Of a DNA stretch of 51,510 bases, positions 41,279 through 48,457 are shown piece after piece. Below the pieces are notes generated by a model. It ran no database searches. It was given only the letters and a program-made list of their open reading frames with translations, and was not told where the DNA came from. Origin of the DNA: Escherichia phage BananaBelafonte; the sequence record PP925845.1; one strand, written 5' to 3'. Both the position numbers and the translations under genes were made by a program. Numbering within the stretch: the first letter of the stretch is position 1; each line of letters opens with the position of its first letter.

Positions 41279-41316
41279 CAGCACTAATTGCTAAAACTGC
41301 CAGGTGAAAGCCTGGC
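41279..41316 (+). promoter_or_regulatory. conserved intergenic module copy
   Basis: ACAGCACTAATTGCTAAAAC then hairpin GCCAGG-TGAAAG-CCTGGC then CATAAT; near-identical hairpin also on minus strand near 48406-48432. Confidence 0.55.
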
Positions 41317-41352
41317 ATAATAAGCCCAACGGAAACAAACGAGGATAATTAA

Positions 41353-42099
41353 ATGGCTAAAGACGCTTTGGATAATGCAACTATTGACGGCGTTGTTGCG
41401 GTTGATGAAATGGATTTCCACGAGTTGCAGCACGGCAAATATTCAGATATCGCCTTACGTTCTGGCGGTCATTATCAGCCAGTACGTGAAAACACCTACT
41501 TTAAAGTGACGGGCAACCGCTACGCAGGAAGCAACACACCGGACGTTGTGCGGGATTTGTGGGCGACTCCGCGCGAGGTTGTCGAATATATGGCGGAGCG
41601 TTACGGGGCTTATGATCTTGACGCGGCAGCGAGCGAAGAAAACGCAGTGTGCGCGAAGTTCTACAGCAAAGATACGAACTGTTTAAAACGCTGGTGGGGT
41701 AGTAAAAAGCACATATGGCTCAATCCACCATACAGCAATCCAGATCCGTTTGTGCTTAAAGCTATTGAGCAAATGGAGCATGACAACCAGATTGATATTT
41801 TACTTCCGGCTGATAACTCAACGGCCTGGTTTAAAGACGCGCAAAAGAATGCGGCGGAAATTATCTGGATCACTGGCGACACCTGGACGGGCGAGGACGG
41901 GCGCGAATATTCACGCACAGGCCGATTAGCGTTTATTTCTGGTCTGACAGGTGAACCAGTGCAGGGCAACAACAAAGGATCTGTAATCTTTGTTATGCGC
42001 CAACTTAAAGAGGGTGAGCAACAACAAACTCACTATGTGACAATAACCGAAATCTGCCCGTCTGTTAAAAATCGACGCGCAAAAGCAAGGAGCATTTAA
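41353..42099 (+). CDS. dam: DNA N6-adenine methyltransferase (Dam-like)
   Basis: Catalytic NPPY motif (WLNPPYSN); size and organisation typical of phage orphan Dam methylases. Confidence 0.8.
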   Translation: MAKDALDNATIDGVVAVDEMDFHELQHGKYSDIALRSGGHYQPVRENTYFKVTGNRYAGSNTPDVVRDLWATPREVVEYMAERYGAYDLDAAASEENAVCAKFYSKDTNCLKRWWGSKKHIWLNPPYSNPDPFVLKAIEQMEHDNQIDILLPADNSTAWFKDAQKNAAEIIWITGDTWTGEDGREYSRTGRLAFISGLTGEPVQGNNKGSVIFVMRQLKEGEQQQTHYVTITEICPSVKNRRAKARSI

Positions 42100-42205
42100 T
42101 GCACAAATTAACACCCTTGTTTATTGTTATAATCTTCTTAGTCGCTGGCTTTGTATTATCAAGCGGCGCAATAAAATTAATTATCGGATTAGTGGAGCTA
42201 TTCGC

Positions 42206-42436
42206 ATGAAAGAGAAATCTGTTTACCTTAATGAATTAGGTCAGTGGCTACTGTATCGCGGCATGGTTTGCCAAGAGCTAGAAAACCAAAACATGCACCG
42301 CTTGATTGATTGCGACCCGTGGACGTTTTCAGAGTCGCTCGATATGAGCTTTGAAGAAACCCGCGTGCTACCGCTTGAAAAGTGGGGCGAGAAGATTGCG
42401 GAAGATTGCGAGGAGCTAAAACGAGATCTGAAATAG
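42206..42436 (+). CDS. hypothetical protein (76 aa)
   Basis: ORF with GTGGAG RBS; stop embedded in conserved module. Confidence 0.4.
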   Translation: MKEKSVYLNELGQWLLYRGMVCQELENQNMHRLIDCDPWTFSESLDMSFEETRVLPLEKWGEKIAEDCEELKRDLK

Positions 42437-42471
42437 CACGAATTGCTAAAACTGCCCCGCGAAAGTGGGGC
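42434..42471 (+). promoter_or_regulatory. conserved intergenic module copy
   Basis: TAGCACGAATTGCTAAAA with embedded stop, hairpin GCCCCGCGAAAGTGGGGC, then CATAAT; leader CAACGAAACGAACTGAGGAAA. Confidence 0.55.
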
Positions 42472-42507
42472 ATAATCATTTCAACGAAACGAACTGAGGA
42501 AACCGAA

Positions 42508-42705
42508 ATGAAAATCTACTGCAAACGCTCCTTTAAACTGGCTCAAGAAGTCTCACGCGAGGCGGTAGCCGAGGGGAGCAAGGCGGGTTATGATTTCGAT
42601 TGGTCAATCGCAATGATTTATCTGAAAGTTGCGACGGGCTACGCGAGCATTGAGGAGATCGAACGTTTGGAAAAGGCAATTAACGAGGTAAGCAATGAAG
42701 GTTGA
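42508..42705 (+). CDS. hypothetical protein (65 aa)
   Basis: ATG at 42508 after GAGGAAACC leader; ORF-track start 42382 rejected. Confidence 0.4.
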   Translation: MKIYCKRSFKLAQEVSREAVAEGSKAGYDFDWSIAMIYLKVATGYASIEEIERLEKAINEVSNEG

Positions 42706-46082: not shown

Positions 46083-46086
46083 TAAA

Positions 46087-47667
46087 TCACCCCAACAAAG
46101 CCGGATTCACAAACACACGCCCATTGATAACGCACACATAATTCCTTTCTTCCAGCATTGGCAAAAGATTCTCCTCAATGCGTTTCATGATCCCAGCTTG
46201 CCCCAGGAAAGGCTTAATCTTGCGTGCGGATTCGTAAATCGCGCGAACGTTCAAGATCCCTTTATTGGCTTTGCCGTGGCGCGTGATAATGTCGATTAAC
46301 TTGCTCATTTCGGCATCGTCGCCAGCGTGACCGGAAGCATTCGCCGCGCTAATGTAGGTTTTGCTTAACTCCTGGAACATCAAGAGCGCCTCTTGCATTG
46401 TCTCTAATTCAATCTCACGAGCTTTTTGTGGCGATCCGGTTTCGTTAAACCAGTTGCGGATAACGTGCAGAACGGAAGCAATGCGGATCACTTGTTTATC
46501 CATTTTACCCAGCGCACCGCGCAACATGGTATGCGAGAATTTGCCGCCGTCAGCGAGATCTGGCTCCATTTCCTGACGAGCACGGTTTAAGCAACGCATC
46601 GCCGCTTTGCTGATCTTCAATGAAACGTCTTGCTCGCTCATGATGTTATGCACCAGTTGGTAATATTGCGCTTTCAGTGTCGGATCTACTGGCTCAAATG
46701 TTGAATCGCCCTCGTCGTCAATAAAGGTACGACGACCCAGGAATGACTCCTCACGAACCAGCAGGAAACGCTCTGATACACCGATGCCGCGCGAACCAGC
46801 TTCCATGATGCCGTTAATAGTTTCATCCTGTGCGATTACGCTCATGCAACCCAGGGCTTTAAAACTCATGTTGTTTTCGGCGTTAGCACGCGCGATAGAA
46901 ACATGCCCCGCATCCCACGCTTTAAGCACCAATTCGCTGTTAGTCTTGCGCTCGCTATTCGCGTAAGTCAACCCTAACAGGCTGTTAATACTGGTTGCCT
47001 CGTCCGAGATTACCGCAAAGTTGCCCTGGCGGTTGTTGATTTTCGCCAAACCTTCTGGCGTGGTATCGGAAACCGGAAACACGATATCGCACATTTTCAG
47101 GAGCTTTTCTTCTAACTCCTCTTTCTCCTCATAGAGCGATGCCATATCAGCGCCGGATTTCTCCGCTTTCATTTCTTTAGCCAGGCCAGCCAGTTTTGCC
47201 AGAATCTTTTTGCGCTCTTTCTTGCGTTGCTCGTTGATTCGCTCAACTTCGCAGACCATCGGGGCAATCGCCAGGCTGTTAATCGCGGATTTACCAGTAG
47301 ACGGCGGCTGGCTTGTCACAACGTAGAGCGCCGTTGGCTGATCGGTTCCGTGGTAATCCACGGTAAAGCGTCCGAGCATCGCGGCAGACACGCAGCCTAC
47401 AAAGTGCATATAGGCAGACGAGGCCGGAAACTGGACTGACTGCGCAATGTTGCGTGACAGCTTGCCTACAACGTCAACGTCATTTCCGAGTGAGATCACA
47501 GGGTAGCGATCATTTCCGGTGTTAATGTCCTGGACTTCACCCCAAAAGCTGGAGGATTGACGATAACCATTTGCCCCGATTGCCACGCGCACAGGTGAAA
47601 GACCTTGCGTTTCAGCCATTGCGATAACTTGTTGTGGGGTAAGTTTGTTAGTGTCAAAGTCAAACAT
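46087..47667 (-). CDS. large P-loop-like protein (526 aa), possibly replication-associated
   Basis: Strong RBS AAAGGAG; Walker-A-like PPSTGKS; Lys/Glu-rich coiled segment; family resemblance (DUF3987-like) is a tentative recollection. Confidence 0.5.
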   Translation of the reverse strand: MFDFDTNKLTPQQVIAMAETQGLSPVRVAIGANGYRQSSSFWGEVQDINTGNDRYPVISLGNDVDVVGKLSRNIAQSVQFPASSAYMHFVGCVSAAMLGRFTVDYHGTDQPTALYVVTSQPPSTGKSAINSLAIAPMVCEVERINEQRKKERKKILAKLAGLAKEMKAEKSGADMASLYEEKEELEEKLLKMCDIVFPVSDTTPEGLAKINNRQGNFAVISDEATSINSLLGLTYANSERKTNSELVLKAWDAGHVSIARANAENNMSFKALGCMSVIAQDETINGIMEAGSRGIGVSERFLLVREESFLGRRTFIDDEGDSTFEPVDPTLKAQYYQLVHNIMSEQDVSLKISKAAMRCLNRARQEMEPDLADGGKFSHTMLRGALGKMDKQVIRIASVLHVIRNWFNETGSPQKAREIELETMQEALLMFQELSKTYISAANASGHAGDDAEMSKLIDIITRHGKANKGILNVRAIYESARKIKPFLGQAGIMKRIEENLLPMLEERNYVCVINGRVFVNPALLG

Positions 47668-47722
47668 TCTTCAAATCTCCTTTCTTGTTGCCGCTTATAA
47701 TACGGCAACAATGCTACCCTGT

Positions 47723-47742
47723 TTTAACAAAAAGTGCTATTT
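47723..47742 (-). promoter_or_regulatory. conserved intergenic module copy (minus strand)
   Basis: Minus strand reads AATAGCACTTTTTGTTAAAA with embedded stop of gene 47737-47985, then hairpin GTTGCCG..CGGCAAC and RBS of the 526-aa gene. Confidence 0.5.
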
Positions 47743-47985
47743 GATCCGCTCAATGCGAGCCATTAATTTACCATTCAGCGAGCTAACGCATTCGGCGGTG
47801 ACTTTATCGACGTAGACAAAAGGCAGTGACGCGCGGTAGTTATGCCCGATTTGCCACTTCCCGCCTACAACCTTAATCGGCTTGACGATATCGCCAACTT
47901 TCATGCAGGAGGTTTCCCCCGCGATCACTTTGTAGCGCCATTCTTTTTGCACGTCGCCAACGCCTAAGTATTTCTTTTCACTCAT
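47737..47985 (-). CDS. hypothetical protein (82 aa)
   Basis: ORF overlapping upstream stop (ATGA); stop embedded in conserved module. Confidence 0.4.
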   Translation of the reverse strand: MSEKKYLGVGDVQKEWRYKVIAGETSCMKVGDIVKPIKVVGGKWQIGHNYRASLPFVYVDKVTAECVSSLNGKLMARIERIK

Positions 47986-48380
47986 GAATATTTCGCCTCA
48001 AACAGATATGCGCCACCAGCAGAGAATCCGACCTCCTCGCGGTAGAGTGTGAAGCGGTCGCCGTCCTCGTCAAAGATATAGCCAGCCACGCCGCCCAATA
48101 CGCGCCCTTGCTCGATCTGATAACGCTTGCCCACCTTAAATGTTTTCTTGTGGCTCATTGAGTGATCGACATACGTGCATTTGATAGTGCGGGTTTTGAT
48201 TTCGCGATAATCGCGCTTATCAGCATCAACCCACTTTGAGCCTTTCGCCAATTCGCGCACCTGGAATTGCTCATTAAATGAAACTTCTTCGGGCTGAAAA
48301 TCCATGCTGCCATTGAATACAGGGCGATCAACGATACGAGCTTTCATGAGTTTGTTGTCAGAGTTGCGAATCACTTTCAT
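47982..48380 (-). CDS. hypothetical protein (132 aa)
   Basis: ATG (rc) at 48380 after AAAGGAG; ORF-track start 48413 rejected. Confidence 0.4.
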   Translation of the reverse strand: MKVIRNSDNKLMKARIVDRPVFNGSMDFQPEEVSFNEQFQVRELAKGSKWVDADKRDYREIKTRTIKCTYVDHSMSHKKTFKVGKRYQIEQGRVLGGVAGYIFDEDGDRFTLYREEVGFSAGGAYLFEAKYS

Positions 48381-48405
48381 TTGTGTATCTCCTTTCGTTT
48401 GGTGT

Positions 48406-48457
48406 GATTGCATTATGCCAGGCTTTTACACCTGGCGTTTAGCAATTCGTGCTATTT
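48406..48457 (-). promoter_or_regulatory. conserved intergenic module copy (minus strand)
   Basis: Minus strand reads TAGCACGAATTGCTAAAC (stop of methyltransferase-like gene embedded), hairpin GCCAGG..CCTGGC, CATAAT, then AAAGGAG. Confidence 0.55.

Follow-up and report, generated by a model that had tools for sequence, protein, structure and literature searches.

A 21-nucleotide (nt) direct repeat was described for phage TLS and noted in T1, Rtp and Rogue1, and a 2024 account lists its function as an open question (PMC11447400). As reported there, the TLS authors floated roles for the repeat as a stoperator, an enhancer or an UP element. The 51,510-nt genome of Escherichia phage BananaBelafonte (PP925845.1; this whole stretch is called the window here), a complete-length genome of a T1-like siphophage of the family Drexlerviridae, carries about 24 copies of a 20-bp element, two of which precede look-alike hairpins in opposite orientation, on the plus strand at 41299-41321 (site 1) and on the minus strand at 48436-48412 (site 2). 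The 20-bp element is the known 21-nt repeat: it shares the consensus aaATAGCACnnnTTGnTAAAA, is intergenic and co-oriented with transcription, and lies about 76 nt 5' of an ATG. The two hairpins are probably the variable stem-loops of two among about 24 modules found at gene joints, predicted to be class II marbox-type promoters with a nested RNA stem-loop.

The marbox is the asymmetric site bound by MarA, SoxS and Rob, activators of E. coli, with the consensus AYnGCACnnWnnRYYAAAY (PMC3709825). In class II marbox promoters, the site is in forward orientation, overlaps the -35 region and clusters at about -41; the -10 and start are canonical, and no -35 hexamer can be recognised (PMC12052159, PMC10268841, PMC8811837). 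RamA contacts micF, the archetype of the class, at about -41 through CACT-N7-AAA (PMC8811837). Repeated units that combine promoter and stem-loop have also been described as promoter-early stem-loops (PeSLs), the composite promoter/terminator cassettes of T4-like phages (PMC4122927). The repeats of TLS, T1, Rtp and Rogue1 are the same element as that of the window, and what is available of their description makes no mention of a -10 at fixed spacing, of hairpins or of a match to the marbox (PMC11447400).

The plus strand of the window carries 15 copies of the element and the minus strand nine, oriented with the adjacent genes; two of the minus-strand copies are antisense to the late operon. 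A 16-nt core gives 27 matches, where 2.3 are expected. For the anatomy of the module, 296 distinct modules pooled from the window, its GenBank relatives and IMG/VR contigs were aligned without gaps, anchored on the element. Positions 1-19 read ATAGCAC-(T/G)(A/T)(A/T)-TTG-(C/T)-TAAAA, and positions 20-35 are variable. Positions 36-37 are T and G, the G (at -14) being present in 84%, and a -10 hexamer TATAAT follows at fixed spacing at positions 39-44 (base frequencies T.65, A.88, T.72, A.62, A.56, T.86). C and A occupy positions 50-51 (-1/+1) in 69% and 76%, respectively, such that position 51 is the predicted start. Downstream of the CA start lies a conserved leader, ATCGAAACGAA, with a ribosome-binding site, and the ATG falls near position 77; the distance from the element is 75 nt at both sites (41278 to 41353 and 48455 to 48380). 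The module is accordingly described here as a predicted extended -10 (TGnTATAAT) sigma-70 promoter with a predicted start, which has an 18-bp spacer after the element and no -35 hexamer. A conventional -35/-10 consensus scan picks up none of the modules, and positions -35 to -30 read AAAACn.

Two other promoter assignments were rejected. TTGCTA as a sigma-70 -35 hexamer would leave a 22-bp spacer to the -10, and the consensus scan matches no module. For a sigma-54 promoter (TGGCAC-N5-TTGC, GG-N10-GC), the element, TAGCAC-N3-TTGC, has AG in place of GG and a spacing that is 2 nt short. In 230 of 369 modules, the upstream gene uses the TAG of ATAGCAC as its stop codon (for example at 48452-48454, 1221-1223 and 2641-2643); therefore, genes end within the putative activator site of the next promoter. 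The segment right after the predicted start, A-TCGAAACGAA, is conserved across modules and phages (for example at 1270-1281, 2690-2700 and 40999-41010) and could be a signal for translation or RNA processing.

The first 18 positions of the marbox consensus have 23 perfect matches in the 51.5 kb, against 0.06 expected, and these are exactly the phage repeats, both sites included. The variable positions of the element (T/C at 2, A/T at 10 and C/T at 14) coincide with the Y, W and Y of the consensus; this variation breaks the dyad, so a simple dyad reading does not fit. All modules read GCAC-N7-AAA toward the downstream gene, which is the forward orientation, and the centre of the element is at -40.5 relative to the predicted start (about -41), where that of micF is at -41.5. 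The spacing from marbox to -10 was measured directly on micF of E. coli K-12, in which the marbox ACAGCACTGAATGTCAAAAC is followed by 18 bp, TAGAAT and, 8 nt later, the annotated +1. The micF marbox is identical to the site 1 element at 16 of 20 positions, and both are separated from the -10 by 18 bp. Besides the consensus match, the predicted modules combine all four class II features: orientation, position, absence of a -35 and a canonical -10. Unlike the chromosomal class II promoters, they occur in a virulent phage, in about 24 copies and far closer to the marbox consensus, and they carry an RNA-type hairpin in the spacer or around the -10; activator binding to them is putative.

Host activators of the Rob/MarA/SoxS type (RamA in Klebsiella and Salmonella) would bind the element and recruit RNA polymerase, and the case for such binding is strong on sequence grounds. 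The window itself holds no AraC/MarA-like open reading frame (ORF) in a search of its six-frame ORFs with a hidden Markov model (HMM) built from MarA, SoxS and the N-terminal domain of Rob, for which the best E value was 0.02; the search serves as a screen only. A phage-encoded MarA-like activator was rejected on the basis of this screen. No searchable paper combines the marbox with T1-like phages, and as far as the searchable literature shows, a class II marbox role for the 21-nt repeat is unreported.

Site 1 lies directly 5' of a Dam-like methyltransferase gene (41353-42099, plus strand). Its element, ACAGCACTAATTGCTAAAAC, occupies 41278-41297 on the plus strand, is a T1-type 21-nt repeat and matches the forward marbox perfectly; the TAA stop of the upstream ORF (41024-41278) ends on its first base. 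The hairpin is found exactly where the preliminary description had placed it, with GCCAGG at 41299-41304, TGAAAG at 41305-41310, CCTGGC at 41311-41316 and ATAAT to 41321. The RNA folds with -14.4 kcal/mol (z -4.3) into a stem of 8 bp (41298-41317) whose GAAA tetraloop is closed by a U.G pair, and the hairpin, GCCAGG-TGAAAG-CCTGGC (41299-41316), covers about -30 to -12 of the promoter spacer. The extended -10 (41313-41321) consists of TG at 41313-41314, one base and CATAAT at 41316-41321, 18 bp past the element. The predicted start, placed by position weights, is A 41328 after a C, and the leader runs to 41352 with the Shine-Dalgarno sequence GAGGA at 41341-41345.

Site 2 lies between a Dcm-like methyltransferase gene (48452-49147, minus strand) and the small gene p143 (47982-48380, minus strand). 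Its element, ATAGCACGAATTGCTAAAC(G), at 48455-48437 on the minus strand, is again a perfect marbox match, and the TAG at 48454-48452 within it is the stop codon of the Dcm-like gene. The sequence of the minus-strand hairpin was given correctly in the preliminary description, as GCCAGG-TGTAAAAG-CCTGGC-ATAAT following the 20-bp element, as at site 1, but its coordinates, about 48406-48432, were off by 4 to 6 nt: GCCAGG occupies 48436-48431, TGTAAAAG 48430-48423 and CCTGGC 48422-48417, with ATAAT to 48412. This hairpin (48417-48436) is likewise a stable RNA fold, at -13.7 kcal/mol (z -4.6). The extended -10 (48412-48420, minus strand) has TG at 48420-48419, one base and CATAAT at 48417-48412, again 18 bp past the element. 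The predicted start is A 48405, with a leader to 48381 and the Shine-Dalgarno sequence AAGGAG at 48394-48389. The probable ATG of the gene ending at 47982 is at 48380 (minus strand); the start in the list of ORFs, 48413, falls within the -10. Site 1 serves the rightward Dam operon and site 2 the leftward operon, and therefore the two are convergent promoter regions.

GCCAGG-N4-12-CCTGGC occurs at two sites in the whole window, only these hairpins, and in none of 100 shuffles. The two copies had been called near-identical. Among 276 module pairs, theirs ranks third in variable-region similarity, and its longest exact match is 15 nt, AAAGCCTGGCATAAT. Part of this shared stretch, TG-n-CATAAT, is dictated by the promoter consensus. 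The gap from element to hexamer is exactly 18 bp at both sites, since the loop of site 2, which is 2 nt longer, is offset by a shorter linker. The same-strand pairs 3181/6145 and 2640/3831 are more similar than the site 1/site 2 pair. In short, the hairpin pair is ordinary, two members of a repeated family of promoters with stem-loops, and the module is the more interesting object. The idea that the stems act as Dcm sites, given that GCCAGG and CCTGGC contain CCWGG and lie near the Dam and Dcm genes, was rejected, since CCWGG occurs 205 times against about 166 expected. Genome-wide there is no avoidance of CCWGG or of GATC (300 against 287), and the phage encodes both Dcm-like and Dam-like methyltransferases.

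Stable folding is a property of the family. Across the 296 modules, positions 19-53 have a mean fold of -10.4 kcal/mol, compared to -4.5 for shuffled sequences (p 1e-45) and -8.2 for the antisense strand, with fold z-scores of -3.3 on the sense and -1.7 on the antisense strand (p 4e-47). Where a single stem position is not Watson-Crick, it is G.T in 67 cases and A.C in 12 (p 2e-10). The hairpins come in two registers. In class B, to which both sites and the modules at 40949 and 42433 belong, the hairpin lies between the element and the -10, and its 3' arm ends at the first base of the -10 (-12). In class A the hairpin surrounds the -10, such that the loop is the -10 itself, and the 3' arm ends at -1. 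GNRA and UUCG tetraloops are common among the hairpins.

The register of the two hairpins was tested by explicit pair counting with controls on 31 distinct Dam-side and p143-side promoters, aligned without gaps. Columns 22-28 pair with 33-39 in 77%, compared to 56% when shuffled and at most 47% in slid controls. All seven pairs change on both sides, and the covariation is 0.54 against 0.21, a value reached in 0 of 500 shuffles. Because the hairpins vary in register and loop length, RNAalifold missed them on the gapless promoter alignment and recovered only the mini-palindrome of the element. The stems themselves change in a compensatory manner. Orthologous Dam promoters have GCCAGG/CCTGGC, GGCGCA/TGCGCC, GCCGGAT/ATCCGGC or CCCGGC/GCCGGG, and the paralogs 3181/6145 have AAGGCCA/TGGCCTT versus GAGGACA/TGTCCTC, as 2640/3831 have GGGCTT/AAGCCC versus GGGGTT/AACCCC.

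The G.T excess, the sense-over-antisense z-scores and the GNRA and UUCG tetraloops suggest a role at the RNA level on the sense strand. The hairpin lies upstream of the predicted start and would thus be absent from the RNA of its own promoter, to be transcribed only by read-through from the upstream gene. This agrees with the finding that strong structure is present mainly where a co-directional ORF lies upstream: modules with such an ORF have a mean of -12.2 kcal/mol, with 88% at or below -8, and those without have -6.6, with 35% (p 1e-8). Stems are weak or absent in the first promoters of divergent units (38460, 51138 and 29599). Most likely, the hairpins would function as RNA, located where the transcript of the upstream gene has its 3' end. 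Each would be a weak terminator, an attenuator or a 3'-end-protecting stem-loop of the read-through transcript, nested in the next promoter.

Several points weigh against the proposed promoter and stem-loop module. The searchable literature maps no 5' or 3' ends of Drexlerviridae transcripts, and the start and the RNA ends are predictions. The sequences used in the statistics are mutually related, so the p-values overstate independence, and some modules counted as having no upstream ORF do follow one of fewer than 60 codons. The tails of the site 1 and site 2 hairpins, AUAAUAAG and AUAAUGCA, are not U-tracts. A screen of the Keio collection with the T1-like phage LL5 makes no mention of rob, marA or soxS, which fits either redundancy or dispensability of these activators. 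The last position of the marbox (Y, 19) is A in 71% of the phage elements, as it also is in micF, and the phage element is tighter than the consensus at A3, T11 and T12. The element is also partly palindromic, TAGCA-N5-TGCTA, so another binder is possible, and modules are found in phages listed with the hosts Vibrio cholerae and Pseudomonas. The same marbox/-10 modules were observed in Vibrio phage Vc1 (NC_054898.2 20697-38836), a member of the Drexlerviridae, and the Pseudomonas-labelled phage Motto was matched as well; the host assignments of both bear on the host-factor hypothesis.

These last points would also fit a phage dimeric regulator, such as the Cro/CI-like helix-turn-helix (HTH) protein encoded at 38003-38446 on the minus strand, which would bind the element as an activator or at a stoperator-like repressor site and leave the marbox match as coincidence or mimicry. 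The half-sites of the partial palindrome are 10 bp apart, conservation at positions 3, 11 and 12 goes beyond the marbox consensus, and modules persist in phages with listed non-enterobacterial hosts. A putative transcriptional regulator beside the primase gene is conserved in all relatives, including Vc1, and stoperator or enhancer sites are among the roles floated by the TLS authors (PMC11447400). This explanation is a live rival but a rather unlikely one, given that the variation breaks the dyad yet fits the degeneracy of the marbox (T at 14 in 38%, C at 2 in 8%), and that the 23 perfect matches against 0.06 expected are to an independent, published 21-bit host motif, with an orientation and an 18-bp spacing equal to those of micF. 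The protein at 38003-38446 gives only sub-threshold Pfam hits (Cro/CI-type HTH), and the element is found at every promoter, those of the earliest genes included, a pattern that sits uneasily with a factor still to be synthesized. The modules do resemble the stoperators of mycobacteriophage L5 in that many asymmetric copies are oriented with transcription within operons. The L5 stoperators, however, are bound by the prophage repressor of a temperate phage, whereas the phage modules have no known repressor and lie at a fixed activating distance from a -10.

The hairpins at the two sites might alternatively be ordinary Rho-independent terminators of the upstream genes that overlap the promoters by chance, which is distinctly improbable. 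Some family members do combine a hairpin with a T-run, namely 40963-40985, flagged by the terminator scan, and 38019 (minus strand). PMBT35 has CCCGC-TTCG-GCGGG-TTTTGTATTAT, the stem in the main T1 clade is followed by UAUUAUU, and T1 has been described as units flanked by terminators (as quoted in PMC11447400). Sites 1 and 2 have a GC-rich stem-loop and no U-rich tract directly after the stem: the tails AUAAUAAG and AUAAUGCA hold only two to three U, and the scan flagged neither. Without a U-tract, the two hairpins are not canonical terminators. Class A hairpins, for their part, are followed by AUCGAAAC. The family shares with Rho-independent terminators and with intercistronic 3'-end stabilising stem-loops a GC-rich stem, often with a GNRA or UUCG loop, about 17-25 nt past the stop codon, with tolerance of G.U on the sense strand and compensatory evolution. 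Unlike either, most copies, sites 1 and 2 included, lack a U-tract and overlap the -10 of the next promoter.

There is little probability that the hairpins act instead as DNA, by extrusion of a cruciform or hairpin in the spacer or around the -10, and adjust the strength of the promoter or its response to supercoiling, as hairpin promoters do. Such a role would suit the fixed positions of the stems, with 3' arms ending at -12 in class B or -1 in class A, and a class A loop that is exactly the -10. However, the excess of G.T over A.C (67 to 12) and the greater stability of the sense strand are unexpected for a duplex or cruciform, and the hairpins are largely absent at promoters that lack an upstream co-directional gene. 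Moreover, stems of 6-8 bp with loops of 4-10 nt form cruciforms poorly.

Inverted copies about 7 kb apart had also been proposed to support recombination or inversion. The Dam gene is present in 63 related IMG/VR loci (55-94% protein identity), and gene order and strand in all 63 are hel667+ nuc137+ dam+ exo373+ lys164+ hel526- p143- dcm231-. The five best GenBank relatives are likewise collinear, so the inverted arrangement was seen in none of the 63 loci or of these five relatives, and no invertase is annotated in four relatives. Efficient homologous exchange generally needs about 25-30 bp of identity. Homologous or site-specific inversion of the 7-kb segment is highly improbable. In its favour, the copies are inverted, lie 7.1 kb apart and share the 20-bp element and an exact match of 15 nt; an exonuclease/annealase pair is encoded by the phage itself, modules coincide with mosaic breakpoints between phages, and a swap of two equivalent promoters could be tolerated. 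Against it, all loci are collinear, the unbroken identity of 15 bp is too short, none of the four relatives has an annotated invertase, the window has nine minus-strand modules, and the orientation is fully explained by operon direction, the minus-strand copy being inverted because it serves the leftward operon. Rare inversion within a phage population is compatible with the sequence data.

The further suggestion of the preliminary description, that the modules spread by duplication, is borne out in the form of copying or exchange, given the 24 copies, the compensatory paralogs, a relocated variant and breakpoints at modules. Identity to the window is 93% for Klebsiella phage KLB26 and about 82% for Salmonella phage PMBT35 and for two Changchunvirus phages, W011D and PaulSarasin. 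Seven of the 13 homology breakpoints between the window and KLB26 fall in modules (1219, 1602, 2638, 3177, 3258, 41009 and 41342). In KLB26 the site 1 module drives an extra gene ahead of Dam. PHB17 has the GCCAGG-TGAAAG-CCTGGC module in front of the MKNVTVKLI gene; in the window, the ortholog of that gene (2709) comes after a different module, of class A. PMBT35 has an identical copy of the site 2 variant, which is also conserved in W011D and PaulSarasin. Each site thus has a closer relative elsewhere (KLB26 and PHB17 for site 1, PMBT35 for site 2), such that the two are not direct copies of one another, and recent gene conversion between them was set aside as unlikely on the same grounds. 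Their likeness appears to reflect common descent and the exchange of module variants, with the two as related alleles of one mobile module. The convergent Dam-side and p143-side promoters of the main T1 clade (IMG/VR loci L150-L186) share the hairpin CCCGGC-GAAA-G(C/T)CGGG. A hairpin common to both sides is thus found again, here with another stem, and this points to concerted evolution or to reuse of a module allele.

In these respects the modules resemble the PeSLs. Both are repeated units of promoter and stem-loop between small genes in variable regions, with indel or mosaic breakpoints of close relatives at the units and one unit found before different genes. Unlike the PeSLs, the modules belong to an unrelated phage family, combine a marbox with an extended -10 that lacks a -35 rather than a T4-type early promoter, and have no sequence relationship to them. 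The stem-loop is also nested inside the promoter, and recombination is inferred from seven breakpoints and two relocated copies only.

The remaining family members are as follows. Class A modules on the plus strand lie at 1220-1270, 1537-1587, 2640-2690 (GGGCTT...AAGCCC), 3181-3231 (a paralog of 6145 with compensatory stem differences), 3831-3881 (a paralog of 2640), 4827-4877, 6145-6195 and 31092-31142, the last with its -10 shifted by 1 nt. Class B modules on this strand include 40949-40999, where the hairpin is followed by TTTT and carries a terminator-like flag, and 42433-42483, with GCCCCGC-GAAA-GTGGGGC and then CATAAT. The module at 38460-38510 (plus strand) is the helicase promoter, first in its rightward unit, and has a weak hairpin. 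At the terminase/portal junction (10319-10375, plus strand), the element at 10319-10338 has a non-canonical downstream layout, in which TATAAT comes 5 nt on and is followed by a canonical terminator, CAGGGCTGGACATTCCAGCCCTTTTTT. The element at 24587-24606 (plus strand) is directly 5' of the tail-fibre gene and has no -10 at the canonical spacing. A module without a hairpin lies inside an ORF (42695-42940) at 42761-42811 on the plus strand, with a perfect marbox and TAGTAT at the canonical spacing. It is conserved in PaulSarasin, PMBT35, W011D and BHUENT9, and may be an internal promoter for the gene of a 373-aa exonuclease/phosphoesterase at 43036.

On the minus strand, class A modules lie at 47690-47740, with TTGTTGCCG...CGGCAACAA, and at 49803-49853, and weak hairpins are found at 50292-50342 and at 51088-51138, the latter first in its leftward unit. 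The module at 29549-29599 (minus strand), with one marbox mismatch, is also first in a leftward unit and has no real hairpin. Two copies are antisense to late genes: the element at 14920-14939 (minus strand) has no -10, and the module at 18623-18673 (minus strand) shows TGG-TAGAGT at the canonical spacing and leads directly into a bidirectional terminator at 18580-18614, such that any antisense RNA from the copy at 18673 could be very short. The module at 37969-38019 (minus strand), which lies between the regulator and primase genes, has its -10 (TATCAT) in the loop of a hairpin that is followed by TTTTTT. Given that the -10 sits in the loop of this terminator hairpin, the predicted start falls in the 3' arm of the terminator, and upstream transcripts would terminate while new ones would escape.

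Neither an Rfam family nor a tRNA was found. Six tandem repeats of 63 nt (21 codons) lie at 36090-36530 within the large tail-fibre gene on the minus strand (34361-36997).

The match to the marbox gives a testable answer on the role of the 21-nt repeat. It is quite possible, although the proposal is put forward tentatively, that T1-like phages have wired nearly all of their early and middle promoters to the host activators MarA, SoxS, Rob and RamA by means of near-consensus class II marboxes, each with an RNA stem-loop by which the upstream transcript is ended or protected, and that these units serve as portable cassettes driving mosaic evolution. Hairpins with covariation of the RNA type, together with breakpoints at the modules, offer a concrete model for how small gene cassettes are insulated and shuffled. 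If host factors do bind, a widespread family of enteric phages would be tied to the multidrug-resistance and stress regulon of its hosts; phages of the T1 type are common contaminants of laboratories and fermentations and are candidates for phage therapy. Expression of the phage genes would then follow the bile, oxidative or antibiotic stress state of the host, and mutations such as those in marR, soxR or ramR, by which resistant clinical strains raise the activators, would alter how susceptible a strain is to these phages.

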